Source: an uncultured Sedimenticola sp. (lineage in GTDB: Bacteria > Pseudomonadota > Gammaproteobacteria > Chromatiales > Chromatiaceae). From it: 64,000 nucleotides of DNA. Under the pieces are notes generated by a model. The model did not search any database. It was not told the DNA's origin and worked only from the letters and a program-made list of their open reading frames with translations. The position numbers and the translations under genes were made by a program. Numbering within the stretch: the stretch's first letter is position 1; every line of letters begins with the position of its first letter. Location: positions 9,317-73,316 of the forward strand of contig CAZJCM010000003.1 of NCBI GenBank assembly GCA_964544655.1, in the 5' to 3' direction. This document shows positions 9,812-42,756 of this stretch, in pieces.

Positions 9812-10285
<474 letters not shown>

Positions 10286-19875: not shown

Positions 19876-20140
19876 GGAATTGCCGGAGATCGCTTCAGAA
19901 TCAGAGGAATGGAAAACCGGACATGATACCCCCGATGAGGTCCAAGGGCCAAGAATTGCAGGGCCCCAATAGCAAAAATATCACCCCTGCCCGATTCTAT
20001 GGAGGAAAACAGCGTCAGTATAATCCTTCGTTGCGGGAGCAAGCTGTACACCATGATTGACCGGACAAGTGATCGCAACCAGGAAATCACTCCCGTCAAC
20101 CCCTATCAGTCGGGAGCATTTTGCACGGGCAGTGTTTACA

Positions 20141-21382
20141 ATGCACCACTCCACACAGCCCGACTCCGATCTCAATACCCAAGTGAAGCCTGAACAGCTA
20201 ACCGAAGAGTGTGACCGCTGCGTCAAATGCGGCCTCTGCCTGCCCCACTGCCCCACCTACCGCCATACTCTCGACGAGGGTGACTCACCAAGAGGCAGGA
20301 TCGCCCTGATTCAGGCAATGACCGCAGAGGGTATCGACAGCCGCCGACTGCAGCGTCATCTCTCCCGCTGCCTCGGCTGCCGCGCTTGTGAAGCCGCCTG
20401 TCCCTCCGGGGTCCGTTACGGGGCGCTACTCGACAGCGCCCGCAATATCAGCCGGCGGAGACACCCCACGGTCGGTCAGCGGCTGATTCCGGCCCTCATC
20501 TCCTCGCTGCCCTATAAACCCTACAGCCGCCCACTGCTGCGACTCTATCAACGGTCCGGGGCCCGCTGGCTGGCACGCCGTCTCGGCGGCAGACGCTGGC
20601 GGCGGCTGGATGATCTGCTGCCACCGCTGTCATCCCATCCGGGCTGGCAGGAGAGCTACCCCCCTGCAACCGGCGAACACAGCCGGATACTCCTGTTCAC
20701 CGGCTGCATGGGCCGCATCACCGACCAGCCCGCGCTGGATGCCACCATCCAGTTGCTCAACCACCTCGGTATCGAGGTGCTGGTGACAGAAAAGCAGGCC
20801 TGCTGCGGCGCCCTGCACCAACACAACGGAGACCCGGATGCGGCAGAACGTCTGGTCTCGGCCAACCGCACCGCATTTGCCCTGCCAGAGATCGATGCCG
20901 TCGTCTATCTGGCCAGCGGCTGCGGTGATCAACTGGAGAAATCCGCACCTCCCGGCGGCGCACCAGTAATCGAGATATGTCGCTATCTGACGCAGATCCA
21001 GGCCCAGTCACGGCTGACACTGCGGCCGCTGCAGAAGCGCGTCGCCATCCACACCCCCTGCTCCCTGCGCTATCCCTTGAGGGGGGAAGGCTCCGCGCCG
21101 GCACTATTGCGCCAGATCCCCCAAATCGATCTGCAGTTCCTCCCTGGAGAGGGCTGTTGCGGCGCAGCCGGCAGCTACCTGCTGACTCAGCCGGAGATGG
21201 CCGACGAACTGCGGGAAGATGCGCTGACCGCAATCGGTGATCTGCAACCTGACATCCTGGTCACTTCCAATACCGGCTGCACCCTGCATCTGGCCGCGGG
21301 ACTAAAGCGACAGAACGCAGACCTGAAAGTGATGCACCCGGTGGAGTTGTTGTGGCGGCAGGTGGAACAACAGCCCCGCTGA
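20141..21382 (+). CDS. glcF: GlcF-like (glycolate oxidase Fe-S subunit family) protein with 2x[4Fe-4S] motifs and CCG-type Cys-rich domains
   Basis: 'CVKCGLCLPHCPTY', 'CLGCRACEAACPSG', later 'FTGCM...ACCG' and 'HTPCS...GCCGAAG'. Start at 'MHHSTQ' (20141). Confidence 0.75.
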   Translation: MHHSTQPDSDLNTQVKPEQLTEECDRCVKCGLCLPHCPTYRHTLDEGDSPRGRIALIQAMTAEGIDSRRLQRHLSRCLGCRACEAACPSGVRYGALLDSARNISRRRHPTVGQRLIPALISSLPYKPYSRPLLRLYQRSGARWLARRLGGRRWRRLDDLLPPLSSHPGWQESYPPATGEHSRILLFTGCMGRITDQPALDATIQLLNHLGIEVLVTEKQACCGALHQHNGDPDAAERLVSANRTAFALPEIDAVVYLASGCGDQLEKSAPPGGAPVIEICRYLTQIQAQSRLTLRPLQKRVAIHTPCSLRYPLRGEGSAPALLRQIPQIDLQFLPGEGCCGAAGSYLLTQPEMADELREDALTAIGDLQPDILVTSNTGCTLHLAAGLKRQNADLKVMHPVELLWRQVEQQPR

Positions 21383-21496
21383 GCCAGGAAGGCAGCGGCA
21401 CCAAGGCATCCGGCTGGCCCGGTCATCGCATCCAGGAGGCTGCTCCTGCGAACGGCATCTACCGTGCAACCGGTAAAACCGGCTATCATTAAAACT

Positions 21497-22141
21497 ATGG
21501 ATACACGCAACTACACCCCGGCCGATCAGTTGCTGATCGGCATCGATCAGTTCCTGCGCACCCTCTTTGGCCAGCCGCAGGTCACCGGGCGCCCCAACCC
21601 GGCCGACAGACTACCGGAGGCCGAGCTGACTACGGAGCAGAAACGGCATACCGCCAGGTTGATGCGTATCAACCACACTGGTGAAGTGTGTGCCCAGGCC
21701 CTGTACCAGGGGCAGGCGCTGACCGCAAAATTGCCCGAGGTACGTCACAGCATGGAACGTTCCGCTCAGGAGGAGAACGACCACCTGGCATGGTGCGATC
21801 AAAGACTGCGGGAGCTGGACGACCGCAAGAGCCTGCTCAATCCACTCTGGTATGGCGGCGCCTTCGCCATCGGTGCCGGCGCCGGTCTGGCCGGCGACAA
21901 GTGGAGCCTGGGCTTCGTCGCCGAAACCGAGTATCAGGTGTGCGCTCACCTGGAGAGCCATCTGCAGCAGATTCCTGCGGATGACCGGAAAAGCCGCGCC
22001 ATCCTGGAGCAGATGAAAGAGGATGAGATGCGCCATGCCACGACAGCCCTGGAGGGCGGCGGCGCCAAGCTGCCGAAGCCGATCAGGCTGGCGATGAAAC
22101 TCACCTCGAAGCTGATGACCAGGAGCGTCTATTGGCTATAA
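21497..22141 (+). CDS. coq7: Demethoxyubiquinone hydroxylase (di-iron carboxylate Coq7 family)
   Basis: '[18 protein letters not shown]', 'EENDHLAW', '[11 protein letters not shown]', 'EDEMRHA' (paired E...ExxH motifs). Start at 'MDTRNY'. Confidence 0.88.
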
Positions 22142-22275
22142 GCTGTCCTGATTACGTCCATGGTTCAGCAAAGGTTGAAGTAACTATCCTGCTGCCATGA
22201 AAATTCAGCGACGATCTCGATTGCAGCTGAATAGTTACGATTGAATTAACCGCATAAACCCGGCGTTGCCGCCAG

Positions 22276-23604
22276 TCACAGGTGCCGCAGGTTGTCCTTG
22301 GCGGTGCGGATCAACTGCACGATGGGAATGCTGGACGGACAGGCAAAGGTACAGGCACCACACTCCACGCAGTCCATCACCCGGTATAGCTCCTTCATCT
22401 CCTCGAACAACCGCGCCTTGCCCAACCGCGCCAGGCGTGAGGGATTGAGAAAGTAGGGGCAGGCCTCCAGGCAACGGCCGCAACGGATGCAGGGATATTC
22501 TTTCGGCCGCGCCGTCTCCTTCTCGGTAAAGGCGAGGATGCCGGAGGTCCCCTTCAGCACCGGCACATCCAGGCTGGCGATGGGGGCGCCCATCATTGGA
22601 CCACCCATGATCACCTCCCGGGTCTCTTCCTTCAGACCACCGCAGAAACGCAGCACATCCCGTACCGGCGTGCCGAGCGGCACGATCAGGTTGGCCGGAT
22701 AGGCGGCACCGGGGCCGGAGACGGTCACCACCCGCTCGATCAGGGGCATACCGCGGTCGAACCAGTCGGCGATGGCCACTAGGGTGCCCACGTTGTTCAC
22801 CGCTATACCCAGATCACGGGGCAGCTGACCTGCCGGCACCTCACGATCATAGATCGCCTTGATCAGCATCTTTTCCGCCCCCTGGGGGTACTTCACCGGC
22901 AGCGAGACCACACTCACCGGCCCATTGGGGTCGAGCCGTTTCTCCAGCTCGCGGATGGCATCCGGCTTGTTCGCCTCCACACCGATGGCGGCACGCTCCG
23001 CGCCCAGCTTGGTACGCAATATCTCGATGCCCCGCAACAGGGCATCCGGGCGCTCCATCATCAGCCGGTGGTCATTGGTCAGATAGGGCTCGCACTCGGC
23101 GCCGTTGACCAGCAGATCGTGGATCTGCTGGCCCTCGGGGATGGCATATTTCACATGGGCGGGAAAGGCGGCGCCTCCCATGCCAACGATGCCGGCCTGC
23201 TGCACCTCCCTGATGAATTCATCCATGCTGAGGGACGCCCACTCCCGTGGCGGCTGAACCGGCAGCTGCTGCGTGGCATAAGGATCGGCCTCGATCTCGA
23301 TCGCCAGCTTGAAGCTGCCATCGATATAGCGATGGGGACCGATATCCCGCACCCGACCGGTAACCGGACTGTGCAGGCAGGTCGAGACGAAGGCCCCTGC
23401 CTCGGCTATCAACTGACCGCGCACCACCTCCTCACCCACCTTCACCACCGGCTTCGCCGGCGCCCCGATGTGCTGCCCCAGGGGCATCAGATAGCGCTCG
23501 CCAAAGGGTACGCGCTGGATCGGCCGGTCCACCGTCTGCTCCTTGTGGCCAGCCGGATGGACGCCGTGGGAGAAGGAGCGTTCAAACAGATTCAGCAAGG
23601 ACAT
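22276..23604 (-). CDS. RnfC-like NAD(H)/FMN-binding iron-sulfur protein
   Basis: 'HPAGHKEQT' N-terminal RnfC-type region, 'IVGMGGAAFPAHVK', 'LVNGAECEPYLTNDHRLM', two ferredoxin motifs 'CIRCGRCLEACP' and 'CVECGACTFACP'. Starts 7 nt after the stop of the 1522-aa gene. Confidence 0.85.
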   Translation of the reverse strand: MSLLNLFERSFSHGVHPAGHKEQTVDRPIQRVPFGERYLMPLGQHIGAPAKPVVKVGEEVVRGQLIAEAGAFVSTCLHSPVTGRVRDIGPHRYIDGSFKLAIEIEADPYATQQLPVQPPREWASLSMDEFIREVQQAGIVGMGGAAFPAHVKYAIPEGQQIHDLLVNGAECEPYLTNDHRLMMERPDALLRGIEILRTKLGAERAAIGVEANKPDAIRELEKRLDPNGPVSVVSLPVKYPQGAEKMLIKAIYDREVPAGQLPRDLGIAVNNVGTLVAIADWFDRGMPLIERVVTVSGPGAAYPANLIVPLGTPVRDVLRFCGGLKEETREVIMGGPMMGAPIASLDVPVLKGTSGILAFTEKETARPKEYPCIRCGRCLEACPYFLNPSRLARLGKARLFEEMKELYRVMDCVECGACTFACPSSIPIVQLIRTAKDNLRHL

Positions 23605-23611
23605 GGCATAC

Positions 23612-26600
23612 CTACTCGTACCCCGCCAGATGCAGCAGGCGCTGGCGGATCTGACCGGCGATCTCGCCTTGCAGACCGGACTGCAACTCCGCCATGCGTC
23701 GTTCGTATTCCGCTTTCAGTGCGGCGATCTCGGCCGCCCGCTCGTTTGCCACGCACTGCTCGGCCTCCTGCCGCACCCGCTCGGTGAAAGGGGTGACCAG
23801 GCCCGCCAGCTCCTGCAGTGTGCGCCATATATGGCCCAGACGCCCCATCTGCATGGCAGCATCCACGCTCACTTTCAGCGCAGTCCCGGCCTCATCGGTG
23901 AGCCTGACCACAGGTGTCTTCCGTTGCCGCTCCGCTGGCGCCAGTGCGAGCCAGTCGATCACTGGCACAGCCGGCGGATCGTCTTCCTCCAGGCGGGAAA
24001 AATGGTCGGCGAAACGCTGCTCTGAAAGCATCCAGTCCAGCGGCGTGAACGGCGCCCCATCGTCACCCGGTGCCCACGCCTCCCGCTCATGCGGGTTGCC
24101 GGCAAGGCTGATCCGGCTACCGAAGACTCCCTCCTCTTCGGGGTTATAGCGCAGCAGGGGAAAGGCGCGGCTGAGCAGCGCCAGCCGGGACTGCCGCAGG
24201 GTCTGATCGGCGGCGAAGCCATGGCGCAGGGGACTCGGCGCATGCAGCCGGATCAAGGCGGGCCCGGAAAAGCCGAGGGCCTCCTTCAGGCACTGGCGAT
24301 AATGGTCCGGCTCAGCGATGGCACACTGGGCGACATAGGCATCGCGCTGGGCCAGGGCCATGAGGAGCAGGTCGGTACGGGGATCATGGCTGTCGGAGAC
24401 TGAATCGGACGTCGGCCCGGCCCCGGCCAGCCCGAGATCCAGGCTGCTGAGCAGCAATACTTTGAGCGGCAGGCCGCTGTTGAGCAGCCAGGCGACCTGG
24501 GCCAGCCCACGGCCTCCCAGTTCCCGCTCACTGCCGACCAGGATCAGGGGCGGACAGAGGGCCCGCTCTTCATCGGTCAGCGCCTGCCAGCAGGAGGCGA
24601 CCTCGGCTGTCGCCTGTTTGTCATCCAGTGCCGCCCTGGCGCGGCGTGCCAGGTTCAGGGTCGCCATCATCTCAGCCAGCTGTCCCTGCAGCAGGCCGAC
24701 CGCCATCTGCGCCCCATCACCGGTCATGTCGAGGGTGACCGGCGCGTGAAACGGGTTGTTCGGAAACACCCCGGCCCAGGCGGCGACGCTGCCTGGCACC
24801 AGCGCCAGCCCGAAGCGGGCGCGACCCAGGCCGTAATCACCCTTGGAAAGCTGCCAATGCGCCTGACGCAGGCCACTGGCCAATTCGATCAGCCCACCCA
24901 GCCGGTCGGCGTCGATACTGCTTTCCCGGCCACTGGAGCCCCTGGTCAGGGTGGAGAGATCGATCTGCCGGCCGCCCGCCGCCCCCAGATTGTTCAACAG
25001 CGTATCGAGGTCGTCCGTAGGCAAGGCATCGGTGAGGGTGTCCCGGATCCGCGTTTCAATCTCCCCCAGCAGGGCCGCCAACTCTGTATTGAAACGGCTG
25101 AGCCGGGGCTGCTGGTGATACTCTGTAGCGGCCAAGGCCAGGCGCAGCGCGATCTTCTCGCCTGAACCCGCCTCGGAGCCATCGCCGCCAGCCACTGCCA
25201 TGGCGCAGTGCCGGGACATCAACAGGGCGGCCAGGCCGTTCATATCGCCTTCTGCACCCAGCCGCTCAATGGTGGATGAGGCCGTATCCGGCATCTGTTC
25301 CCAAATGCGCCAGCACAGGCCCGCCTGCTCCAGCAGGGCCGCTGTCTGCGGCTGCGGGGTCAGGGCCTGGGCCTCGCAGGCCGCCAGACATAGGCCACAG
25401 CCCTTGCAGGCATCCGGATCGATCACCAGGGACAACAGCTCCCCACCATCCTTCTGCAGCCTTTCACCGCCCTGAAACAGGAGATCGGTCTGGGCCAGAG
25501 GCAGCGGTCCGACCTGTTCCACCACCGCAGCGAATGCCTCCTGCACCGCCTCTCTGCGCCCCTCGGGCAGGGGGGCCTTTTCCTGCAACCAGTCCCAGGC
25601 CCGCTGCAGCAGAGCGCCTGCCGTAGCGCCGGTAATCTCACCCTTGCGCCCCAAGGCACTGATCCGGGCTGCCAGCTTGCCCCCTACCTGACGCAGGGCA
25701 TCGGCGCCGGCCAGCCGGATACCGCTATCGACCAGCGTACTGGGGGTGAGCGCGGCAACGGCGATGGCGCTGTCGGGACAGGCGGTCCAGCAATCACCGC
25801 ACGCGGTGCAGAGTTCCGGGTTGAATTCGGGCAGGATCCGGCGCCAAGGCCCCATACTGCGGAACGTGCTGCTCAGCGGCGGTACCGCCGCCACCGTCAT
25901 GAAGGGATCCGCCGTTAGATCCTCCTGCTCGCCTTCGCGATAGAGGATTCCGACCTGATCCCAGAACCGGGGCAGACTGAACAGGGTCTCATCGCTCCCC
26001 CCCAATTGGCGCACCACAGCCGGGACCTGGTCCCGCCACTGCGCCTCTTCCGCCACTACTGACGCAGCCAGGGAAAAGGGCTCAAGCCGCGTCATTCCGG
26101 CGTCGAGGGCCGCCGTCAGGGCATCCCGCCCCGCAGCGGAGAGGCCGGCCAAGCCGCTTTCCCAGGCCGACTGGATACGCCGGCTCGACTCCCCGATCAG
26201 CCCCAGTGCCTGCATTGCGGCCATCGCTCCGCCAAGGCGGTATGCATCCTGCCTCTCGGCCCTGCCGGGGCCGGATTCCCCCGGGCCGTCCTGCTCCCAT
26301 CTCCCGGCCGGGAGACGGAACAGGCGCAATTCCATACGCTCGATGAGGGAGCGGGCCGTCGCATCCTGCCCCAGCACAGACTCCGCAGGATCCTCCAGGC
26401 CGCAGACCAGCAGGCCCGCGCCTTGGCGCAGCCGCGCCAGAAGCGCCGGGTGCAGCGGTTCATCGGCCGTGATCAGGGCGAAATCGAGACTCTTCTCTCC
26501 CTCTGCCGGCAGTGGCGCACCCTCAGCGCCATGAATGAGACGGTCGCAGCGCCAGCCATTCCACTCGTCCCAGGCGGAGTCGGGCAGACTGCGCAGCCAT

Positions 26601-28180
26601 CCACCGGCCAGCCGGTGCAGCAGTCCGGCACAATCCGGCAGGATACCCCCGGCGTGATGAACCGGCCGATGGAGCACTGCCAAGGCGAGGGCGCCCTTGC
26701 CGCGAAGGTCTACCCCGGCATCCCGCGCGCGTACGCCCAGCCGTTCGATCCCGGGATAGGCGCGGCGAACCTGGTCCAGCAGCACCTGCCTCTTGGGGTG
26801 CTTTTCGATATTGCCATGAAAATCGATACCAAGATAACGAACGGAGGGCGCCCCGCCATCCAGGTCGCGACAACAGGTGATCAGGTCACCACTGTCCAGC
26901 GCCAGGCCGCCCAGGCCATAGAGCACCGAGAAGGGTCGTGGCAGTTGCTGCTGATCCAGGGCCGGCACCGCGGGGTAGGGCGGGGCACCACCGTGACGCC
27001 GATTCTCCAACGCCATCGCCAGGGTGGCACGGACCTCCCGCAGCAGCGGCGCATCACCCGCCAGGGGGGTGTCCAGACGCTCCAGCACCAGCAGCTGGCG
27101 CCTGCCCTTCAGCCGCTCCAGCAGTTGGTTATGGGGGAAAGGGCGCAGGCTGTTGATACCGACCACGCCAACCTTCATCTTGTGCTCCTGACGCAACCGG
27201 TCGGCCACTGCACGGACCTGCTCCACGGCACTGCCCTGGACCAGCAGCAGTAACCGGGCATCCTCCACCCGATGGCTGGAGAGGGCGCGGTAGCGACGCC
27301 CGGTCAATCGGGCAAACGCATCCTGGGCCTGGCGCAACAACTCCGGCAGGTGGTCGTCGAAGAACGGGCGATTGCCCGCCACGCCTTGGGCATAGGCATC
27401 CGGCGCCTGCAGACTACCCTGCTGCAACGGCCGGTCCAGGTCGTGCCAACGCGGCAACCGGCGTCTGCTGTCGCCAAACAGCAGCTGCTGGGCCGGCGTT
27501 GGGCAGGCCACCGACGCCTCCGTACCACCGATGTAGTCACGAATCAGCGCTGCATCCACCAGCCGCAATTCCTGCAGCGAGCGGGCAGTACCCTCCCCGT
27601 CCATTGCCACCACCACCGGCAGCAGGGCGGTCTCGGCCAGCCGGCGGGCAATCAGAGTGAAGTCGACCGCCTGCTGGACATTTTCGGCGAGCAGGATCAC
27701 GGCCCCTGATTCCGCGGCCATATGCAGTGCCCGATGGTCGCTGCCCCGGCTCACGCCTTGGGCCGGCAACGCCTGATTGTCGAGATGAATCACCAGCGGC
27801 AGATGACGGGAAGCCGCATTGGCCAGCAGATCCTGCACCGCCGCCAGATCCGGCCCGGCCAGAAACAGTGTGGTACGCAGTCCGGCCATGGACTGTCCCA
27901 TGGCAACGGCAAAGGCGCCCCGGGGGCCTTCCGCAGCCTGGGCTTCCGGCCTGATACCGAAACTGTTCACCGGCATGCGCTGAAGCGCCTGTTGCCAGGC
28001 CAGTTCCGCGCCGCTGGCGGAGGTAGCATTGCTCAGGGCAGCCGCATCGGCCAGGGCCGCTTCGGTAAGGGCTACCGCACTGTTGCCATCCAGCACCTGA
28101 TCGGCACCGGCTGCCGGACCCGTCCCGGCAGGAACACCGAACAGGCGCCTATAGAGACGAACTGCAATTTCATTGATCAT
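23612..28180 (-). CDS. Giant (1522 aa) pyruvate:ferredoxin oxidoreductase-like protein with apparently degenerate TPP and proximal-cluster motifs
   Basis: PFOR-like order: N-terminal 'LDGNSAVALTEAA', Rossmann-like middle, ferredoxin motifs 'CTACGDCWTACP' and 'CKGCGLCLAACE', then a domain-VI-like region ending in an Ala/Glu-rich tail. ATGA overlap with the RnfB-like gene. Confidence 0.8.
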   Translation of the reverse strand: MINEIAVRLYRRLFGVPAGTGPAAGADQVLDGNSAVALTEAALADAAALSNATSASGAELAWQQALQRMPVNSFGIRPEAQAAEGPRGAFAVAMGQSMAGLRTTLFLAGPDLAAVQDLLANAASRHLPLVIHLDNQALPAQGVSRGSDHRALHMAAESGAVILLAENVQQAVDFTLIARRLAETALLPVVVAMDGEGTARSLQELRLVDAALIRDYIGGTEASVACPTPAQQLLFGDSRRRLPRWHDLDRPLQQGSLQAPDAYAQGVAGNRPFFDDHLPELLRQAQDAFARLTGRRYRALSSHRVEDARLLLLVQGSAVEQVRAVADRLRQEHKMKVGVVGINSLRPFPHNQLLERLKGRRQLLVLERLDTPLAGDAPLLREVRATLAMALENRRHGGAPPYPAVPALDQQQLPRPFSVLYGLGGLALDSGDLITCCRDLDGGAPSVRYLGIDFHGNIEKHPKRQVLLDQVRRAYPGIERLGVRARDAGVDLRGKGALALAVLHRPVHHAGGILPDCAGLLHRLAGGWLRSLPDSAWDEWNGWRCDRLIHGAEGAPLPAEGEKSLDFALITADEPLHPALLARLRQGAGLLVCGLEDPAESVLGQDATARSLIERMELRLFRLPAGRWEQDGPGESGPGRAERQDAYRLGGAMAAMQALGLIGESSRRIQSAWESGLAGLSAAGRDALTAALDAGMTRLEPFSLAASVVAEEAQWRDQVPAVVRQLGGSDETLFSLPRFWDQVGILYREGEQEDLTADPFMTVAAVPPLSSTFRSMGPWRRILPEFNPELCTACGDCWTACPDSAIAVAALTPSTLVDSGIRLAGADALRQVGGKLAARISALGRKGEITGATAGALLQRAWDWLQEKAPLPEGRREAVQEAFAAVVEQVGPLPLAQTDLLFQGGERLQKDGGELLSLVIDPDACKGCGLCLAACEAQALTPQPQTAALLEQAGLCWRIWEQMPDTASSTIERLGAEGDMNGLAALLMSRHCAMAVAGGDGSEAGSGEKIALRLALAATEYHQQPRLSRFNTELAALLGEIETRIRDTLTDALPTDDLDTLLNNLGAAGGRQIDLSTLTRGSSGRESSIDADRLGGLIELASGLRQAHWQLSKGDYGLGRARFGLALVPGSVAAWAGVFPNNPFHAPVTLDMTGDGAQMAVGLLQGQLAEMMATLNLARRARAALDDKQATAEVASCWQALTDEERALCPPLILVGSERELGGRGLAQVAWLLNSGLPLKVLLLSSLDLGLAGAGPTSDSVSDSHDPRTDLLLMALAQRDAYVAQCAIAEPDHYRQCLKEALGFSGPALIRLHAPSPLRHGFAADQTLRQSRLALLSRAFPLLRYNPEEEGVFGSRISLAGNPHEREAWAPGDDGAPFTPLDWMLSEQRFADHFSRLEEDDPPAVPVIDWLALAPAERQRKTPVVRLTDEAGTALKVSVDAAMQMGRLGHIWRTLQELAGLVTPFTERVRQEAEQCVANERAAEIAALKAEYERRMAELQSGLQGEIAGQIRQRLLHLAGYE

Positions 28181-29037
28181 TGAGATGGTTCCCCAGTGGC
28201 GACACTGAACTGATCACCCTCCAGCCAGCGGATGGCGCCGGTAGGACAGCGGCGGGTGGCGGCTTCACTCACCACGAGGCCGGCCCCGTAATCGATACGG
28301 GGCAGATTGTCCCGCATTTCAATCAGCCCGGGCGTGGCGTCAGCGGCGCAACGCCCGCAGGCATCGCAAGCCACCGTGCAGAGGGCCACCGCCGCCTCTC
28401 CGTCCAGCGGGGTATTGCATTGCACGAACAGCTTCTGGCTGATGGGCACCACTTCGAACAGATCCTTGGGACAGGCCTCGACACAGTCGTTGCAGGCGGT
28501 GCAGTTCTCCGTGTCGACTTGAGGCAGCCCGTTGGCGTTCATCTGAATCACGTCGAAGGTGCAGGCAATGGCACAGTCACCCAGGCCCAGGCAACCCCAG
28601 GAGCAGCCCTTGCCGCCCCCCGAGACCACCGCCGCCGCCCGGCAGCTCTCGAACCCCTGGTATTCGGCAATCTGGTACGCCTGCCCCTGGCCGCCGGCAC
28701 AATGCAGCCGCGCCACCCGCTTCACCTGCTCGCCGGCGTCGACGCCGAGGAAATCGGCAATTGCCTGGATGGTATCCGCATCGGCCACGGTGCAGCCGCT
28801 GGGCTGCACCTCGCCCTTCACCAGGGCCTCGGCAAAAGGCATACAGCCGGGCTCGCCGCAGGCACCACAGTTGGTTCCCGGCAACAGCTCCTCGGTCCGC
28901 TCCAGGCGCGGGTCCTCCTCCACCTTCAGCAGCTTGTAGGCCACCGCCAGGATGATGCCGAAGAACAGCCCCAGCCCGGTCATTACCGCGGGGGCGGTGA
29001 AAAATGAACCCAGATCAGGCAATGTGATAAACCCCAC
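28177..29037 (-). CDS. RnfB-like membrane-anchored polyferredoxin
   Basis: N-terminal TM helix 'VMTGLGLFFGIILAVAYKLL'. RnfB-type 'GTNCGACGEPGCMPFAEAL...GC' cluster motif, then 'CSWGCLGLGDCAIAC', 'CTACNDCVEACP', 'CDACGRCAADA'. GTG start at 29037. Confidence 0.82.
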   Translation of the reverse strand: MGFITLPDLGSFFTAPAVMTGLGLFFGIILAVAYKLLKVEEDPRLERTEELLPGTNCGACGEPGCMPFAEALVKGEVQPSGCTVADADTIQAIADFLGVDAGEQVKRVARLHCAGGQGQAYQIAEYQGFESCRAAAVVSGGGKGCSWGCLGLGDCAIACTFDVIQMNANGLPQVDTENCTACNDCVEACPKDLFEVVPISQKLFVQCNTPLDGEAAVALCTVACDACGRCAADATPGLIEMRDNLPRIDYGAGLVVSEAATRRCPTGAIRWLEGDQFSVATGEPSQ

Positions 29038-29060
29038 AACAGATACTAGAATACGGATCC

Positions 29061-31562
29061 TTAATTAAAAGCCGCCGCCCGTTCCAGCAACTCATCGATA
29101 CCATCCTCATTCGGGTTGAGTGGCTTGCCCGGATGGATACATTTCGACGGGCAGATCTCCGCCGCCTCCACCAGCTGAAGATAGGTGCCGGCACTGGCAT
29201 CGGCGATGATGGCCTGGTTGTTCTCGTTGTAGACGAACATGATCGGGTTGATCGCCAGACAGTCGTTGCAGCTGGTGCAGAGGGGGCTGTCGATCCACGG
29301 CTCATCGAAGCCGACGGCATCCTCATCCTCTTCCTCCACCTCTTCAGGCTCCTGCGCCGCCTCTCCTCCGCCCTCTGCCGCCGTCCGTTCCGCAGCAGGC
29401 GCGGCAGGAGCCGATATCGGCGCCCGTGGGGCGCCGGTGCTGAAGTCCATGCCCATCAACACCTCGGTAAGCCGCCCCATCACCTCTCCAGCGGCCTCCG
29501 CCCGGGCCTGGGCCAACGCTTCCTCATGTTGTGCCTCCAGCTGGGCGATGCGCGACGCCGCCTCGGCGGCAGCCTCATCCCTGACCTGGGCCACCGCCTG
29601 CTCGACATAGCGGTTGCGCACGCCCCCCATCTCCTGCAGGGTATGCCAGAAGCTGAGCCGGTCACGACAGGCATTGACCAGCGTACGGCTGACCACCAGC
29701 TGTTGCAGGGTGCCGTATTTGTCCACCCCCCAGACGAATGGCAGGTATTGGAGCGCCTCTTCCTGAGACAACGCCAGATAGTCGGCGATCGGGATCAGAT
29801 CATCGGATTCACAGACCACCGGCACCTGGGCAAAGTGATCGAACAGCCGCGGCATCAGCAGCGCATAGTCGGCAAAGGTGAAGGCCAGTTCGCTTTCCAC
29901 CGGGGCGCCGCTCTCATCCTGATAACGAAACGGATGCAGCGGCCAGTCGCGCTCAGGTTGTGGGTTGCCGGTGAAATCCATGCGCTCGGCAAATGAATCA
30001 CCGCGGGATGGATCCACCCGGAAGAAGGGGTGAACGCGCCCTTCCAGGGCCGCACCGGCGACCAACCAGGCATTGAGAGCCGTCTCGGTCCCTACGGTCT
30101 TCAGCCCGGTGTTGATCAGATGCAGGCTGGTGCGGGTGGCATCCAGCGCTTCGATATAGCCCTGCAGCAGATGTTCATGGCGCGCCGCCGAGGTCTGAGC
30201 CACGAAGGCCTGGCGATGGGCGATGCCCAGATAACCCAGCTCGGTACGAAACGCCTGAAACGGGTCCTCATCATGGCGTGCACCCGGGTTATGGTGAGCC
30301 TGGACCCGTACCATCACCTGTATCGGCCGGCCGGAATTGAGCAGGCGGGAAAAATCGGACATCCCTTCACCGGCCATCCGATCCGCCCCTTCCAGTGCAA
30401 TCACGGTAGGCACCAGGCGGATCTCGTCCTTGGAGAAGCCTTCCCAGTTGAAGCTGTCGAACCAGGGGTCGTGGATCGAGGGGTCATACAGGTCATCCCG
30501 CTCCAGATGAGCGATGCGCAGAGCGGCGAATACCTGCGCCAGCTTCTCCGCCTTGCGATCGAACAGGGCCGTTGCCTGGGCGACCGGGTTAGGATCGGTC
30601 AGGGCCTCGAAGTCGGAGTGGCCCTGCAGCCAGCTGTCATCGGCCAGGCTCCCGGAATGGATGAAGCGCACCCGCACAGGACCCTCCTGGTACGCCTGCA
30701 GGGTCGCCAGGGCCTGCTCCACCCGGCGGCGCCTGGATTCAGGCATGCGTACCGAACCATGGGAATGGTCCATGATGTCGGACAGCGCCTCCGGATCCAG
30801 CAGATCGGCCGCTGCGCCGACACTCTCCTGGAGCCGGGCCGGTTCGATAGCCTCCAACGATTTGCCTCGTTCCACCTCCAGCAGCCGGCTCAGATCGCGG
30901 ATGCCTTCATCGACCTGGGCGCGGAAGCGGGCCAGGCGGGGAGCCGAGAGGCTGCGCACCACATGGATCAGCAGCTGGATTGCCGGATAATGGCCGTAAC
31001 CCAGCAACTGTCCCGCTTCCGGCACCTGTTCCAGCAGGCGATCCAGATCGGCCCGCAGTTTGGCGCTGTTCTCCTCGTCCAGCGCCAACTGTGACAACAG
31101 CCGGTCTGCGGATTCACGCAACAGGGGTAACGCGGGAACCGGTCCCTCCACCGCCTCCAGTTCATCCTCGCCACCCAACTGGCGCCGCAGGTCCCGTTCC
31201 AACCAGGGCAGGTTATCCTTCAGAATCCTGGCCGCCTCATCAGCCGGGGCAAACTGCTCAACTGCTTCACGCAGAAAACGGGACAGCGGCCGGGCCAACC
31301 GGTCCGGTTCGATCGCTTCGGACTGCTCCGGCGCCGGCGCCAGGTAGAGCGGATACTCATAACGCAATCTGCTGCTGTCACGAAACGGGTCCATCAGCAC
31401 CGGCAGAGTGTCGCGCGCTACCGGCTCCAGCTTGTCCCGAGCTTCTGGGTTTCCCAGATGAAAATGCCGCAGAGTATGCATGATCTCTTTGGAGACATCG
31501 GCATCCTTCACTGCGGTTGGCAGGGTGGGCAAGGGTCCTTCAGTTTGGACTGTGGCGTTCAT
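29061..31562 (-). CDS. 833-aa protein: uncharacterised N-terminal half, PFOR domain-VI-like core, acidic linker and C-terminal single-cluster ferredoxin domain
   Basis: The core aligns by eye to the C-terminus of the neighbouring 1522-aa protein (see findings). C-terminus 'EPEEVEEEDEDAVGFDEPWIDSPLCTSCNDCLAINP....EICPSKCIHPG'. Confidence 0.75.
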   Translation of the reverse strand: MNATVQTEGPLPTLPTAVKDADVSKEIMHTLRHFHLGNPEARDKLEPVARDTLPVLMDPFRDSSRLRYEYPLYLAPAPEQSEAIEPDRLARPLSRFLREAVEQFAPADEAARILKDNLPWLERDLRRQLGGEDELEAVEGPVPALPLLRESADRLLSQLALDEENSAKLRADLDRLLEQVPEAGQLLGYGHYPAIQLLIHVVRSLSAPRLARFRAQVDEGIRDLSRLLEVERGKSLEAIEPARLQESVGAAADLLDPEALSDIMDHSHGSVRMPESRRRRVEQALATLQAYQEGPVRVRFIHSGSLADDSWLQGHSDFEALTDPNPVAQATALFDRKAEKLAQVFAALRIAHLERDDLYDPSIHDPWFDSFNWEGFSKDEIRLVPTVIALEGADRMAGEGMSDFSRLLNSGRPIQVMVRVQAHHNPGARHDEDPFQAFRTELGYLGIAHRQAFVAQTSAARHEHLLQGYIEALDATRTSLHLINTGLKTVGTETALNAWLVAGAALEGRVHPFFRVDPSRGDSFAERMDFTGNPQPERDWPLHPFRYQDESGAPVESELAFTFADYALLMPRLFDHFAQVPVVCESDDLIPIADYLALSQEEALQYLPFVWGVDKYGTLQQLVVSRTLVNACRDRLSFWHTLQEMGGVRNRYVEQAVAQVRDEAAAEAASRIAQLEAQHEEALAQARAEAAGEVMGRLTEVLMGMDFSTGAPRAPISAPAAPAAERTAAEGGGEAAQEPEEVEEEDEDAVGFDEPWIDSPLCTSCNDCLAINPIMFVYNENNQAIIADASAGTYLQLVEAAEICPSKCIHPGKPLNPNEDGIDELLERAAAFN

Positions 31563-31705: not shown

Positions 31706-32659
31706 TCAAATAGCGAACTTGTCCAGCGCCGCGTTGATCGCAGCCAGCTTCTCCGCGTTGGTCTTGTCCAGACCCTGGGAGGAGATGTCGTCATAGACTA
31801 TGGCATCATCGTCACGATAGAGCAGACCCACGGGGACCTGGCTGGTATCGCGGGCGATCTCCATCGCCCCCAGCCAGTCGGACGGGTCATGCTCACGCTG
31901 ATTCTCGAACACCCGCTTCACGCTGTCGTCTACCGGAATTCCATCCTCGTGATGCAGCAGTAGAATCCGGGAGGCGTCTTCCTGCAGCGGCTTGCAAAAG
32001 GAGTCCGAGAACACCGGGCATCGCTGGATGATACGCACGAAACTGGTCCCCTTGTGCTGATGGGCCGCCTTGATGGTCTCGTAGAGCATGGGCGGGTTCC
32101 AGTCCACCACCTGGGCCACGAAGGAGATGTTGCTCACACCCAAGGTCACGGTCAGTGGATTCAGGGCCGGCAGGGGCGCCCCGTGCGGATGGGTGTTGGT
32201 GGTCATCCCCGATGGACTGGTGGGCGAGGTCTGTTTCTTGGTGAGGCCATAGATGGCGTTATCGAACACCAACACCACCATATCCATGTTGTAGCGCAAC
32301 GCATGCACCCAGGGACCGGCGCCGATGGAGAAGCAGTCGCCATCACCGGTGGCCACCCATACGTCCAGATCGGGACGCCGCGCCTTGACCCCGTTGGCCA
32401 GGGGCAGCGCACGGCCATGCAGACCATGGAAGCCGTATGTACCCATGTAGTGGGGCAACCGACTGGAACATCCAATGCCGGAGACGGCCACCGTCTGCTC
32501 CGGTGGCAGCTGGGCGTCGCGCAGCACCCGATGCACGGTGTTGAGTACGGCGAAGTCCCCGCAGCCGGGGCACCAGCGGGCCTCGCCGCCAGCATAGTCG
32601 CCGAGGGTGAAATAACGTTCGAATACGTCGAGGGACCAGTCCGCTTTCAATCCAAACAT
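31706..32659 (-). CDS. korB: 2-oxoglutarate:ferredoxin oxidoreductase beta (TPP-binding) subunit
   Basis: 'WCPGCGDFAVL', 'GIGCSSR', TPP motif 'VATGDGDCFSIG...DNAIYGLTKKQ'. ATG at 32659 with AGAGGA upstream; the track TTG at 32677 overlaps the korA stop. Substrate is assigned from rTCA context only. Confidence 0.85.
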   Translation of the reverse strand: MFGLKADWSLDVFERYFTLGDYAGGEARWCPGCGDFAVLNTVHRVLRDAQLPPEQTVAVSGIGCSSRLPHYMGTYGFHGLHGRALPLANGVKARRPDLDVWVATGDGDCFSIGAGPWVHALRYNMDMVVLVFDNAIYGLTKKQTSPTSPSGMTTNTHPHGAPLPALNPLTVTLGVSNISFVAQVVDWNPPMLYETIKAAHQHKGTSFVRIIQRCPVFSDSFCKPLQEDASRILLLHHEDGIPVDDSVKRVFENQREHDPSDWLGAMEIARDTSQVPVGLLYRDDDAIVYDDISSQGLDKTNAEKLAAINAALDKFAI

Positions 32660-32673
32660 ATATGGGTTCCTCT

Positions 32674-34584
32674 TCAATTGTTCAGGGCGTTCAGCTTTTC
32701 GCTGATCGCATCGTAGAGCATGCCCGGCTGCAGCGGGTGACCGTAGACCACCGACCAGCAGTCGACATCGACCAGGGTCTGAGCCCGCAGCACCATGGCA
32801 AGCTGAGCATAGCGCCGGTTCTCGTTGGTGATCAGGGGAGCGTCGGCGCGATCGCTGTAATTGATCTCCACCGTCATCACCTTCTTGAAGCGGCTGAAGA
32901 TCTCCGGCAATCCGGGCTCCAGGGGTGACAGGAAGTGCAGATGCAGCGAGGAGACCCGCTTGCCCTCATCACGCAGGAGGTCCACCGCTTCTTCGATGGC
33001 ACCAAGGGTGGAGCCCCAACCCACCACCAGCAGGTCACCCTCCTGATCGCCGTGCACTTTCGGCGGCTTCAGGGTCTTGTGCAGTGCTGCCAGCTTGCGG
33101 CTGCGATACTCCATGCTGCGCTGATTGGTGTCGGAATCGTAGGCCACCTTGCTGCGATGGGTGTGGGCCAGACCGGTGAGTACGTATTCACCGCCCCGCT
33201 GACCCGGGATCGGACGTTGGGAGAGCCCGGTCTCCTCGTTCCAGTCATAGGCCGGGACCTCCGGATCCCAGGGTGACTGATCCACCGGGGCGCCCAGCCA
33301 CTCCTCTTTCAGCTCAGGACGGGGGTAAGGCTGCACGCCGGTGGCGAGATTGGCATCGGTGAGCATGATCACCGGGATGCGGAACGCCTCTGCCAGCTTG
33401 CGCGCCAGAATCACATAATGGAAACACTCCTCGATGGTCGAGGGCGCGATCACCACCTTGGGCGCATCACCGGGTTCGCCATAGAGGGATGAGAGCAGAT
33501 CCGCCTGCTCCACCTTGGTCGGCAGTCCGGTCGAAGGCCCACCCCGTTGCACATCGACGATGACGATGGGTATCTCCGCCATCACCGCCAGACCGATCAT
33601 CTCGGTCTTCAGCGCCATACCGGGTCCGGAGGTGATGGTGCAGGCGGTTTTGCCGGCGAACGAGGCGCCGAGGGCAAAGCCGATGGCCGCGATCTCATCC
33701 TCAGCCTGATGCACGAACCCCCCCACACCGTCGAATACGTCAGCGATATAGTGGGAAGCGGAGGTGGCCGGTGTGATGGGGTACATGGAAACCAGTTCCA
33801 TGCCCGCCGCCATCACGCCGAGGCCGACCGCCTGGTTACCGTTGCTGATCATCATCGGCCGGCTGTGGCCAGTCTCCTGGGGCGGGATCTCCCAGTGGTA
33901 TTGCACATTTTCCGCGGCGAAGCGGTAACCGGCATCGAACAGGTCATGGTTGACCTGGATCACCTTCTCCCCCTTGCGGGCGAAGGTGCTGGCGATCTCT
34001 TTCTTCGCCAGTTCCACATCACGGCTGTAGATGTTGCAGATCATGCCGAGCACGAACATGTTCTTGCCCCGGCGCGGATTGGATACCAGCTTCAGGCACT
34101 CCTCCTCCAGCGGCAGTTCATGCACGATCAGACCGTGTTCCTGGAACTCCTTCACCGCCGCGGCGTATTGCTCACGGATCTTCTCTTGGGGATCCGTGGC
34201 CCATTTGTTCTCCAGCAACACGATGGTGCCCTTCTTGTAGGCGCCATTGGCGATACGCGAAAACAGCACCTGCTCATTGAAGGCCACCACCAGATCGGCC
34301 TCGTTACCCATATTCGTGACCCGCTTGGAGCCCAGCCTGATACGGATGCCACTGGCACCGGCCGGTGAACGGGCCGGCGGCTGGATCTCGGCCGGGATGA
34401 TCTCGACCGTCCACACCCCATTCCCCATCTTGCCGCTGACGGCACCGAAGGTCTGTCCACACTTCTGTGCGCCTTCACCCGAATCGCTGACGATCTCGAC
34501 GATATGTTCCGGGATGCGCTGAGCGGCACCCGTGCGTTCTTCCATGCGAACGACGTTGTTGCTTTGCTCTGTTTGTTGCGTCAT
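32674..34584 (-). CDS. korA: 2-oxoglutarate:ferredoxin oxidoreductase alpha subunit (fused alpha/gamma type)
   Basis: 'IVSDSGEGAQKCGQTFG' (gamma-like domain), 'GNQAVGLGVMAAGMELVSMYPITPATS', 'AEDEIAAIGFALGASFAGKTACTITSGPGMALK'. Start at 'MTQQTEQ' with AGGAAGG upstream. Confidence 0.88.
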   Translation of the reverse strand: MTQQTEQSNNVVRMEERTGAAQRIPEHIVEIVSDSGEGAQKCGQTFGAVSGKMGNGVWTVEIIPAEIQPPARSPAGASGIRIRLGSKRVTNMGNEADLVVAFNEQVLFSRIANGAYKKGTIVLLENKWATDPQEKIREQYAAAVKEFQEHGLIVHELPLEEECLKLVSNPRRGKNMFVLGMICNIYSRDVELAKKEIASTFARKGEKVIQVNHDLFDAGYRFAAENVQYHWEIPPQETGHSRPMMISNGNQAVGLGVMAAGMELVSMYPITPATSASHYIADVFDGVGGFVHQAEDEIAAIGFALGASFAGKTACTITSGPGMALKTEMIGLAVMAEIPIVIVDVQRGGPSTGLPTKVEQADLLSSLYGEPGDAPKVVIAPSTIEECFHYVILARKLAEAFRIPVIMLTDANLATGVQPYPRPELKEEWLGAPVDQSPWDPEVPAYDWNEETGLSQRPIPGQRGGEYVLTGLAHTHRSKVAYDSDTNQRSMEYRSRKLAALHKTLKPPKVHGDQEGDLLVVGWGSTLGAIEEAVDLLRDEGKRVSSLHLHFLSPLEPGLPEIFSRFKKVMTVEINYSDRADAPLITNENRRYAQLAMVLRAQTLVDVDCWSVVYGHPLQPGMLYDAISEKLNALNN

Positions 34585-34883: not shown

Positions 34884-36131
34884 TCAGCCTCCGATCGCCT
34901 GCTCATATTCATCCATAAAGTGGTATAGGGAGCTGTCCAACACCTTTACCGCCCCATCCAGTAGATGGCAGCGCCCGGTGCCGGGGAGGATCCGGCACAG
35001 ATTGATCAGCGAATCCAGATCCGCCCGCGAACCCTGGCCGGTGTCGATCTTGCCCAGCAGCAGGGAGATATAATAAGTCCCGGTCTTGCAGGGCGGGCAC
35101 TGGCCGCAGGAGGAGGCGGCGAAGAAGTCCACATACTCGGTCACCCGCTTGACGATGCCGGTCCCCTCGGAGACCACGATCATGGCCCCCGTACCCAGGC
35201 TGGAGCGGCGCGCCTGCACCGAATCGAAATCCAGTGGCACGTCCAGATCCTCCGGCGTCAAAATGGTGTTGGAGGGACCACCGGTGAAAACAGCCTTCAA
35301 TTTCTTGCCCAGCAACATGCCGCCACCATACTGCTCGATCAGCTCGGACAACGGGGTACCCATGGGCAGTTCGTAGATCCCAGGGTAGAGCACATCACCG
35401 CTCAGGCAGTAGAGCTTGGTGCCACAGGCATCCCCCCGTCCCAGATTGCGATACCATTCAGCACCGTGACGAACGATATGGGGCAGGTTGGCCAGGGTCT
35501 CCATGTTGTTGATCAGGGTGGGATGGCCGTGCACGCCTGACTCGGCCGGATACGGCGGCTTGCCACGGGGGAAGGGGAATTTACCCTCCACTGACTCGAT
35601 GGCCGCCGTCTCCTCGCCGCCGATGTAATGGCCGGAGCTGGCCATCACCCAATACTCCAGAGGCTGATTCATACATTTACAGACGGCGAAATAGAGATCC
35701 GATTTCTCCCACTCCTCCACCGCCCTGAGCATCACATCCAGGGATTCCTTCTGATCCGGATTGATATAGAAAACGATATGATCGACGCCGGTGGCAAGGG
35801 CGGCGATGGTGGCCCCCTCAATCACCTGGAACGGGGTCTCCTGTAACAGGATGCGGTCCTTGAAGGTTCCCGGCTCATCCTCATTGCCGTTACAGATGAG
35901 ATACTTGGCCACCGCCTCACGCTGCGCCGCCACGAACGCCCACTTCTTATAGGTGGGAAAACCGCTGCCACCCAGCCCACGCAGACCCGCTTCCTGAATC
36001 AGGGAAATCAGGGCTTCCGGCTCCTGCAACGCGATCTGCAGCCCTTCACCACCATGATTGGCCAGCCAGGCATCGAAATCCGCGCCGACCCGGTTGTTTT
36101 CATGCAGCAGAACCTGATTCAGTACCGTCAT
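34884..36131 (-). CDS. NuoF-like NADH-binding FMN/[4Fe-4S] flavoprotein
   Basis: 'GLRGLGGSGFPTYKKW', 'ICNGNEDEPGTFKDR', 'GHYIGGEETAAIESVEGK', 'SCGQCPPCKTG....C'. Starts 12 nt downstream of the FrdA-like gene. Confidence 0.85.
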   Translation of the reverse strand: MTVLNQVLLHENNRVGADFDAWLANHGGEGLQIALQEPEALISLIQEAGLRGLGGSGFPTYKKWAFVAAQREAVAKYLICNGNEDEPGTFKDRILLQETPFQVIEGATIAALATGVDHIVFYINPDQKESLDVMLRAVEEWEKSDLYFAVCKCMNQPLEYWVMASSGHYIGGEETAAIESVEGKFPFPRGKPPYPAESGVHGHPTLINNMETLANLPHIVRHGAEWYRNLGRGDACGTKLYCLSGDVLYPGIYELPMGTPLSELIEQYGGGMLLGKKLKAVFTGGPSNTILTPEDLDVPLDFDSVQARRSSLGTGAMIVVSEGTGIVKRVTEYVDFFAASSCGQCPPCKTGTYYISLLLGKIDTGQGSRADLDSLINLCRILPGTGRCHLLDGAVKVLDSSLYHFMDEYEQAIGG

Positions 36132-42744: not shown

Positions 42745-42756
42745 GAGCCGCGCACC

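Follow-up and report, generated by a model that had tools for sequence, protein, structure and literature searches.

We analysed an operon in a 64-kb stretch of DNA from an uncultured Sedimenticola sp. (contig CAZJCM010000003.1; the whole stretch is hereafter called the window), in which two genes apparently derived from pyruvate:ferredoxin oxidoreductase (PFOR) stand among rnfB and rnfC, directly behind the genes korAB of a two-subunit 2-oxoglutarate:ferredoxin oxidoreductase (OGOR). We call the two PFOR-like proteins PFL1522 (1522 aa) and P833 (833 aa). Comparison with relatives suggests that P833, rnfB, PFL1522 and rnfC are the electron-input half of an operon that is conserved as (nuoF-like trio)-korAB-P833-rnfB-PFL1522-rnfCDGEA. 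In the reading that we favour, and to which we give a somewhat better than even chance, this operon joins the KorAB OGOR to the Rnf complex, the PFOR-like pair relays electrons between them, and the assembly works as a reversible, ion-coupled 2-oxoglutarate:NAD+ oxidoreductase. Judged from their sequences, both PFL1522 and P833 have lost the full set of four cysteines that holds the proximal [4Fe-4S] cluster, and neither has a detectable thiamine pyrophosphate (TPP)-binding domain.

Layout of the locus

An original prediction, made from the DNA alone, had described rnfC, PFL1522, rnfB and P833 as four tightly packed, co-directional genes. Its coordinates, gaps and stop/start overlap agree exactly with the list of open reading frames (ORFs) and with the sequence. 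The operon in the window comprises the following features:

22270..22282 (-): rearrangement breakpoint at the 3' end of rnfC, where relatives run on into rnfD
22276-23604 (-): rnfC, 442 aa, intact; Rnf subunit C, binding NADH and flavin mononucleotide (FMN), 2x[4Fe-4S]
23612-28180 (-): PFL1522, 1522 aa, full-length PFOR-like protein, predicted non-catalytic
28177-29037 (-): rnfB, 286 aa, membrane-anchored polyferredoxin, Rnf subunit B (long type)
29061-31562 (-): P833, 833 aa, paralogue of the C-terminal half of PFL1522 with a tethered ferredoxin
31706-32677 (-): korB, two-subunit 2-oxoacid:ferredoxin oxidoreductase (OFOR), upstream of P833
32674-34650 (-): korA, the same two-subunit oxidoreductase, upstream of korB
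34884-36131 (-): NuoF-like NADH/FMN protein (Pfam and NCBIfam matches)
36144-37766 (-): TfrA/FrdA/NadB-like flavoprotein (Pfam and NCBIfam matches)
37805-38431 (-): protein with 2Fe-2S and 4Fe-4S clusters (Pfam and NCBIfam matches)

The overlap of PFL1522 and rnfB is an ATGA at 28177-28180, read directly in the sequence, and the coordinates leave gaps of 7 nt between rnfC and PFL1522, 23 nt between rnfB and P833 and 143 nt between P833 and korB. No terminator-like site was found in the korB-P833 gap by a promoter/terminator scan. The same scan yielded nothing above chance (13 terminator-like sites in the region versus 8.7 +/- 2.9 expected) and gives no evidence about transcript boundaries.

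Profile searches with Pfam and NCBIfam agreed with the predicted domains of all four proteins. They also agreed with the view that KorAB is a two-subunit enzyme with no built-in ferredoxin (TIGR03710, 511 bits; TPP_enzyme_C, E 1e-24 in KorB). The cofactor motifs of KorB are intact (CPGC, GIGCSS, GDGD...DN and RCP), all four proximal-cluster cysteines are present, and the enzyme has a single cluster and no ferredoxin subunit. As a unit, however, the four-gene operon did not hold up: in the window it is part of a cluster of 9 genes, consisting of the upstream trio, korAB and P833-rnfB-PFL1522-rnfC, and relatives have 10-13.

The same operon in relatives

A search for synteny outside this genome, which had been named as a check on the prediction, found the gene order again in dozens of species. 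A P833 profile, run against a single genome for each GTDB species, revealed 358 places encoding a relative, and we fetched the best 80 loci. The window proteins were mapped on these loci, and only loci with enough sequence to tell were counted. All hosts classified below phylum are Gammaproteobacteria, while a few metagenome-assembled genomes are labelled only Pseudomonadota or 'bacterium'. The hosts include Sedimenticolaceae, Thiohalomonadaceae, Chromatiaceae, Thiodiazotropha, other bivalve and tubeworm symbionts, and Thiomargarita/Parabeggiatoa.

With korB directly adjoining, korAB precedes P833 in 59 of the 66 loci that have room for it, and rnfB follows P833 in 54 of 70. PFL1522 is present in 47 of the 57 loci with room, and rnfC after PFL1522, with a flank reaching rnfD, was found in 41 of 53. 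Behind rnfC, rnfD follows in 40 of 41 loci, and the ORFs located there match RnfD (PF03116), RnfG (FMN_bind), RnfE and RnfA (PF02508) in Pfam. Such a recurrence in dozens of species is far beyond chance. The two closest relatives of the window PFL1522 (67% and 66% identity) are encoded on the contigs L082 and L083. L082 carries an operon of 13 genes, Fer2/Fer4-flavoprotein-NuoF-korA-korB-P833-rnfB-PFL1522-rnfC-rnfD-rnfG-rnfE-rnfA, and the shorter L083 reaches from P833 to rnfD in the same order. Since there is no second rnfB in the L082 operon, the rnfB upstream of PFL1522 is the B subunit of that Rnf. The original prediction had set RnfB and RnfC apart from Rnf, and had itself named rnfDGEA joined to the operon in related genomes as what would make it an ordinary Rnf. 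The relatives show exactly this arrangement. That is, Rnf subunits B and C without a pump are no longer strange once the window is compared with its relatives.

Several lineages have shorter versions of the operon. Tubeworm symbionts encode korAB-P833-rnfB-PFL1522-sucCD with no rnfC at the locus, Parabeggiatoa has an isolated rnfB-PFL1522 pair, and several Beggiatoaceae and Chromatiaceae loci consist of korAB-P833 only. The most constant pairs are korB with P833 and rnfB with PFL1522, the latter even where rnfC is absent. The trio of NuoF-like, TfrA-like and FeS proteins lies directly upstream of korA on the same strand, and it precedes korA in 19 of the 58 loci with room as well as in L082, the closest relative. 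It resembles a soluble NADH-linked fumarate reductase module and might provide the downhill branch if electrons are bifurcated.

RnfC, RnfB and the loss of adjacent rnfDGEA

RnfC scored 521 bits against TIGR01945 (cut-off 246), with RnfC_N, Complex1_51K, SLBB and Fer4 matches from Pfam and NCBIfam, and its sequence contains both CxxCxxCxxxCP motifs of two [4Fe-4S] clusters. RnfB scored 86 bits against TIGR01944 (cut-off 69), matched PF04060 (E 1e-15) and Fer4 and starts with a hydrophobic helix; the equivalog models for long RnfB score under their cut-offs. We also considered RnfC as a stand-alone reductase of the PrdC type and rejected this, since TIGR04481 reached 200 bits with a cut-off of 490 and relatives have rnfDGEA. 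By these profiles RnfB and RnfC are predicted to be ordinary Rnf subunits, and the only Rnf feature that the window lacks is membrane subunits encoded alongside. As originally predicted, tblastn found no homologue of rnfD, rnfG, rnfE or rnfA anywhere in the 64 kb.

DNA alignment explained this absence. Window and L082/L083 are near-identical through rnfC, and the alignment breaks within the last two codons, identity stopping at ...CGGCA(C/T). The window RnfC ends RHL*, whereas RnfC of L082 and L083 is two residues longer and the start of rnfD lies ~3 nt past the stop. Downstream of the breakpoint the sequence (22142-22275) is unrelated to rnfD and leads to a convergent COQ7 gene (21464-22141). 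The junction at rnfC is present on more than one assembled contig. The window lineage has thus lost its adjacent rnfDGEA via a rearrangement at the very end of rnfC, and its locus is a derived truncation. Across the breakpoint and just beyond COQ7 lies a gene (20057-21382, (+)) for a GlcF/TfrB/HdrD-like protein, which has a 4Fe-4S dicluster domain and two CCG domains.

The window RnfC is 91% identical to RnfC of L082, whose gene precedes rnfDGEA. Looking for relaxed constraint on the window rnfC after the loss of rnfDGEA, we observed no acceleration compared with the L082 orthologue. Since it does not evolve faster than this orthologue, the window RnfC is probably still in use.

PFL1522

For the 1522-aa protein, the original prediction had claimed the full domain order of PFOR together with eroded cofactor motifs. 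Both parts were borne out, the first by the fold of domains I-III, the domain V cysteines and the end of domain VI in profile alignments, the second by the missing proximal-cluster cysteines, the undetected TPP_enzyme_C domain and the low score against the PFOR model. Pfam recognised POR_N, PFOR_II and two Fer4 motifs, and neither POR(gamma) nor TPP_enzyme_C above threshold. There are >100 full-length homologues with 41-67% identity, and the family profile aligns to the PFORs of Moorella (6CIN) and Desulfovibrio (1B0P) in domains I-II, part of III-V and the end of VI. Three regions can be distinguished:

26081..28180 (-): residues 1-700, PFOR domains I, II, III (and IV), fold predicted to be kept
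25358..25831 (-): residues 784-941, ferredoxin domain V, 2x[4Fe-4S], split by a ~110-residue insertion
23615..25303 (-): residues 960-1522, degenerate domain VI/VII, apparently without proximal cluster, TPP-binding domain undetected

An AlphaFold model of residues 1-780 (pLDDT 85.5, pTM 0.88) matched Moorella PFOR 6CIN in Foldseek with E 6e-38 and template modelling (TM) scores of 0.66-0.68 across ~700-760 columns. On this model, PFL1522 is predicted to keep the fold of PFOR domains I, II and III. In domain V, all 25 family members compared have the cysteines of both clusters (C791/794/797/801 and C925/928/931/935) without exception. The insertion between the two cluster motifs (residues 806-918, 25427-25765) is helical, ~110 residues long and conserved across the family. 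The same insertion is kept in P833 (residues ~75-160), though the cluster cysteines are gone there, and it might be a docking surface.

The catalytic features of PFOR fared differently. Across residues 940-1522 just two cysteines are conserved among 25 homologues, C992 (92%) and C1209 (100%), and the position of the fourth proximal-cluster cysteine reads Ser-Pro in the profile alignment (aPsP vs APC). TPP_enzyme_C (PF02775) is listed for one of 120 homologues. Against the PFOR model TIGR02176, with a cut-off of 911 bits, the best whole-protein score was 142. The column of the catalytic Glu is occupied by Pro86 in the profile alignment, and E/D84, two residues upstream, is kept in 25/25 sequences. 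Aligned to 6CIN, the YPITPSS of PFOR faces a non-conserved LGxxxxxx segment, and the position of the substrate Arg corresponds to residue 136, where the window protein has Gln and the family as a whole either R or Q. What we take, going by PFOR motifs, to be the former TPP-motif region reads LVG[NS][ED]..LGGRG...L[ED]LDLGL. PFL1522 is also the fastest-evolving gene of the operon, with 67% identity where KorA/B, RnfB/C and NuoF reach ~90% and P833 83%.

P833 and the origin of the pair

In P833, Pfam recognised only Fer4_13 (residues 757-810, behind an acidic stretch); TPP_enzyme_C was not detected. The core in front of it had been likened to PFOR domain VI, which is supported by three lines of evidence. 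BLASTP aligned P833 with PFL1522 over the last 370 residues (E 1e-25). Using hhalign, residues 51-705 of P833 aligned to residues 764-1518 of PFL1522 with a probability of 99.9, the cysteine motifs of domain V being deleted in P833. An AlphaFold model of P833 (pLDDT 86.6) matched PFOR and OFOR beta subunits in Foldseek. When the P833 profile was compared with the sequences of the PDB, only the C-terminal ferredoxin matched; the core was recognised by profile-profile comparison and structure prediction. Two cysteines of the core are conserved at 97% and one at 87%. Two features follow the core:

29310..29450 (-): P833 residues 705-751, acidic linker, pLDDT <50 (disordered)
29127..29300 (-): P833 residues 755-812, single-cluster [4Fe-4S] ferredoxin domain

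The linker, which includes the run EEVEEEDED, is conserved less than any other block of the family (0.45). The ferredoxin domain gave a profile match to D. africanus ferredoxin I (1DAX) and, for the last 60 residues, a Foldseek match to 1FXR with TM 0.84; its cysteines C762/765/768/804 do not vary among 119 sequences.

When 1.84 billion cluster representatives were searched by profile, 2,519 relatives came up, 1,143 of them at E <= 1e-30. Some long relatives of 1,300-1,370 aa have PFOR domains I-II in front of the P833 part. On one contig, L087, such a long form occupies the same operon position, korAB-long P833-rnfB-PFL(1278 aa)-rnfC. Long P833 proteins with PFOR domains I-II in the position of P833 argue for shared descent of P833 and PFL1522 from a duplicated PFOR, and we regard the two, on sequence grounds, as ancient paralogues that arose when a full-length PFOR was duplicated. 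No fusion joining P833 with KorB or RnfB (the Rosetta-stone approach) was seen among the best 150 representatives, where the long forms have PFOR domains I-II instead. Taken together, long variants range over 1,300-1,565 aa (L087 2293-6399 and 7380-11216; proteins P0453, P0464, P0467 and P0418), and the longest, P0418 (1,565 aa), appears to have two ferredoxin stretches. These long forms may be nearer to the ancestral duplicated PFOR.

The proximal cluster of OFORs needs four cysteines. With no such set of cysteines and no detectable TPP domain, PFL1522 and P833 are very unlikely to decarboxylate or synthesise 2-oxoacids. By descent and fold they belong to the OFOR superfamily, in which they fail two defining cofactor features, and they should not be filed as PFOR.

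Proposed function and alternatives

In the reading set out at the beginning, PFL1522 and P833 would pair and thereby mimic the homodimer of PFOR; since PFOR is an obligate homodimer, a PFL1522:P833 heterodimer suggests itself naturally. The pair would be both scaffold and dedicated relay, passing electrons between KorB, with its one cluster, and the RnfB polyferredoxin, with the tethered ferredoxin of P833 as a swinging arm, and it may hold KorAB at the membrane. In the forward direction, NADH and ion-motive force would drive the carboxylation of succinyl-CoA to 2-oxoglutarate via Rnf. In reverse, the oxidation of 2-oxoglutarate would be conserved as an ion gradient and replace 2-oxoglutarate dehydrogenase, an enzyme that is missing from tubeworm symbionts (PMC6315080 supplement). 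The organism of the window would have to recruit its Rnf membrane subunits from an rnf locus elsewhere in the genome. Rnf working in reverse is, according to two reviews, the accepted route to reduced ferredoxin from NADH and ion-motive force (PMC12174285, PMC11889175).

A dedicated low-potential electron link to KorAB, as the original prediction had envisaged, is a sensible idea. That electron transfer from NADH to ferredoxin is uphill and needs coupling also stands. The accompanying statement that no mechanism is evident does not, because the operon of the relatives continues into rnfDGEA, and ion-motive force through Rnf removes the puzzle.

A bolder version is possible, though in our estimation rather doubtful. 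Here, a dead pseudo-PFOR heterodimer PFL1522:P833 would physically bridge KorAB and RnfB in a ferredoxin-free supercomplex, again with the tethered ferredoxin of P833 as a swinging arm; or, in lineages without adjacent rnfCDGEA, the NuoF-like and TfrA-like proteins would bifurcate electrons from NADH between fumarate and KorAB. In such a bridged supercomplex, NADH and ion-motive force would directly drive succinyl-CoA's reductive carboxylation, the reverse reaction would conserve energy, and a pseudoenzyme would serve as wiring.

Several observations weigh against the relay that we favour. The contacts among KorAB, P833, PFL1522 and RnfB are ones that we infer. Loss of the TPP motif and of the first three cluster cysteines was read from a cysteine census, the non-detection by hidden Markov models and known PFOR motifs rather than from a residue-level alignment. 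An hhalign comparison of the KorB-family profile with the PFL1522 and P833 profiles aligned just 53 columns with a probability of 1.9 and gave no residue map, and a homologue search with the N-terminal segment of Moorella PFOR returned only partial proteins of ~600 aa or less. At the former TPP motif of PFL1522, acidic residues are conserved (E/D1218, E/D1246 and D1248), as is E/D84, and PFL1522 may still bind some ligand or metal. The core of P833 is highly conserved with many invariant Arg, His and Asp residues, a degree of conservation that a passive scaffold would hardly seem to require. The window, tubeworm symbionts and Beggiatoaceae are without adjacent rnfDGEA or rnfC, so the PFOR-like pair and RnfB can persist without a neighbouring Rnf membrane module. 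Finally, when sulfide is limiting in Endoriftia, the 'PFOR-like' gene and this korAB go down and the cluster of ATP citrate lyase (ACL) and KorABCD goes up (PMC11636981).

Loci of the reduced kind would also suit a soluble or membrane-tethered complex that works without RnfDGEA. In this complex, RnfC and/or the NuoF-like protein would oxidise NADH and the electrons would bifurcate, downhill to fumarate reduction by the TfrA/FrdA-like protein and uphill to KorAB via RnfB, PFL1522 and P833. The window and the tubeworm symbionts, without adjacent rnfDGEA (and, in the symbionts, without rnfC), have kept rnfB-PFL1522-P833-korAB, and these are lineages in which the trio lies directly upstream. Yet we consider this unlikely: the full rnfCDGEA is the ancestral and majority state, the trio is restricted to 19/58 loci, and tubeworm symbionts have a separate rnfABCDGE operon. 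Nor did a signature of a bifurcating flavoprotein turn up, though no test was aimed at one. Furthermore, electrons do not pass directly between RnfB and RnfC in solved Rnf structures, where the route runs through the membrane subunits. An analogous bifurcating complex, Hdr-Flx/KorABCD/TfrAB, has been proposed in the same organisms and speaks for such a scheme (Rubin-Blum et al., PMC6315080).

That PFL1522, alone or with P833, is a genuine divergent PFOR acting as pyruvate synthase would fit the retained domain order and fold, the conserved acidic residues in the former TPP-motif region, database names such as 'pyruvate ferredoxin oxidoreductase' and 'pyruvate decarboxylase', and the PFOR entry in the supplement of PMC6315080. 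We hold it to be highly improbable. Neither protein has four conserved proximal-cluster cysteines, with Ser-Pro where the fourth ligand would stand; no TPP_enzyme_C domain was recognised in the window protein and hardly any in its homologues; TIGR02176 stays far below its cut-off; the YPITPSS segment is lost and the substrate Arg replaced by Gln in the window protein; and PFL1522 evolves fast. A non-redox role of the pair for KorAB and/or Rnf, such as oxygen protection, assembly or the sensing of CoA/acyl-CoA, with incidental or regulatory Fe-S domains, is hard to reconcile with ferredoxin-domain cysteines that are invariant, eight of them in PFL1522 and four in P833, and PFL1522 is nearly always found beside rnfB, which encodes an electron-transfer protein. 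We give it a low probability, although the fold of the CoA-binding domain III is kept, P833 stays with korAB even where rnfB and PFL1522 sit elsewhere, and oxygen puts OFORs at risk in these hosts, which are sulfur oxidisers with a microaerobic or facultative lifestyle.

The wider neighbourhood

The remaining window is a neighbourhood of the tricarboxylic acid (TCA) cycle and its reductive counterpart (rTCA), with aconitase, pntAB, monomeric isocitrate dehydrogenase, type II aclBA, two mdh genes and gltA. The originally predicted link of the four genes to korAB in a TCA/rTCA locus was thereby supported. Two genes lie beside aconitase:

41173-42744 (+): pntA, proton-translocating NAD(P) transhydrogenase
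42757-44145 (+): pntB, proton-translocating NAD(P) transhydrogenase

The same adjacency of pntAB and aconitase is seen in the rTCA clusters of tubeworm symbionts. A 1076-aa ORF (40969-44199, (-)) with no Pfam or NCBIfam match seemed to be an unknown giant gene and proved to be an antisense artefact over pntA and pntB. Two further long ORFs without a family match (5118-7625 and 8228-10090, both (+)) are probably high-GC antisense artefacts of the same kind; the genes opposite them encode an ODP-GGDEF protein (5904-7883) and an ammonium transporter (8492-9796). The large subunit of ACL (909 aa; 53265-55994, (-)) has a match of the succinyl-CoA-ligase type only and no citrate-synthase-like Pfam domain, which fits earlier descriptions of a divergent 'type II' ACL in these bacteria. 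Between aclB and gltA, two divergent genes of the lactate/malate dehydrogenase family stand side by side (57455-58444, (-), and 58477-59598, (+)).

Earlier descriptions of these genes

These genes have been reported before under other names. 'rTCA cluster 2' of Rubin-Blum et al. 2019 consists of these genes, PFL1522 being read as PFOR and the cluster not linked to Rnf (PMC6315080). For the Escarpia symbiont, the same work lists 'por, rnfB, por-like, korB, korA, nuoF*, frdx*' and treats 'por' as pyruvate synthase; according to its supplement, 'por', 'rnfB' and 'por-like' are transcribed along with korAB (PMC6315080). Mitchell et al. used the label 'PFOR-like' in Endoriftia, where 'PFOR-like' and korAB change together (PMC11636981). 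Our literature searches found no link of these genes to Rnf, no note of the loss of cofactor sites and no function beyond the labels 'por', 'por-like' and 'PFOR-like'. A keyword search of a recent Rnf review brought up nothing on accessory genes of this kind. The statement of the original prediction that Rnf is not known to have a PFOR homologue as partner thus still holds, and we found no paper that assigns a function.

What remains genuinely novel are two apparently dead PFOR paralogues in an OGOR-Rnf operon, mislabelled in the symbiosis literature, with a function that we infer. It is very unlikely that pyruvate is made or broken down by the 'PFOR' or 'por' that the second TCA cluster encodes in the symbionts of Riftia, Escarpia and Lamellibrachia, in Sedimenticola, in Thiodiazotropha and in large sulfur bacteria. 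Where metabolic reconstructions or expression analyses have taken it for a pyruvate synthase, they should be revised. For aerobic or microaerobic sulfur oxidisers, a question has been how the electrons of OGOR, with their very low potential, are supplied or harvested; the operon offers a concrete answer that can be tested, a dedicated second Rnf encoded together with the enzyme. If the built-in wiring is true, a large metabolic enzyme would have been turned into a pseudoenzyme adaptor, and an undescribed class of Rnf accessory subunit would be at hand. The family is large and includes cultivable hosts, which makes experiments feasible; candidates whose proteins came up in our searches are Sedimenticola isolates, Thiocystis violacea and Endothiovibrio diazotrophicus.

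Comparison with known systems

Known accessory subunits of Rnf are RnfH and, in Methanosarcina, MmcA; we know of no described Rnf with PFOR-derived partners. Compared with the Rnf complexes of Clostridium tetanomorphum (7ZC6), Acetobacterium woodii and Azotobacter vinelandii (Rnf1 with RnfH), RnfC and RnfB of the window score as members, and the operon of the relatives encodes D, G, E and A. It differs by a PFOR-like gene for ~1500 aa between rnfB and rnfC, by a second PFOR-derived gene before rnfB and by its fusion to korAB, the window copy being without adjacent rnfDGEA.

With homodimeric PFOR of the NifJ/YdbK type (D. africanus 1B0P, M. thermoacetica 6CIN), PFL1522 shares the domain order, the predicted fold of domains I-III (TM ~0.67) and the two-cluster domain V, and domains VI/VII are homologous in both PFL1522 and P833. 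However, PFL1522 is ~350 residues longer, including the ~110-residue insertion in domain V, and appears to lack both the proximal-cluster cysteines and a detectable TPP-binding domain. Instead of one protein there are two diverged paralogues, of which P833, in the window lineage, is without domains I-III and the domain V cysteines and carries a C-terminal tethered ferredoxin that PFL1522 lacks.

The korAB genes themselves are of the same type as the two-subunit OGORs of Hydrogenobacter thermophilus (Kor) and Magnetococcus marinus (6N2N); their TPP and cluster motifs are intact, and a ferredoxin subunit is absent. But while the characterised enzymes use free ferredoxins, korAB is followed here by P833 with its tethered one. 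OFORs that are hard-wired to pyridine nucleotides follow a shared logic, in which a 2-oxoacid oxidoreductase is connected to an NAD(P) module via Fe-S carriers. Examples are the pyruvate:NADP+ oxidoreductase of Euglena, KorAB with KorC of Azoarcus (2-oxoglutarate:NADP+) and the phenylglyoxylate:NAD+ oxidoreductase PadEFGHI. PadG and PadI models were weak matches in our NCBIfam search. Those enzymes are soluble and run downhill in the oxidative direction, whereas here the ion-translocating Rnf would be the NAD module, which would make the reaction reversible, and dead PFOR paralogues would be the connectors. The Hdr-Flx/KorABCD/TfrAB assembly proposed in tubeworm symbionts (Rubin-Blum et al. 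2019, PMC6315080) concerns the same organisms and shares the idea of an OGOR fed directly by an energy-coupling module of the same cluster, but the OGOR is a different one (KorABCD) and so is the coupling module.

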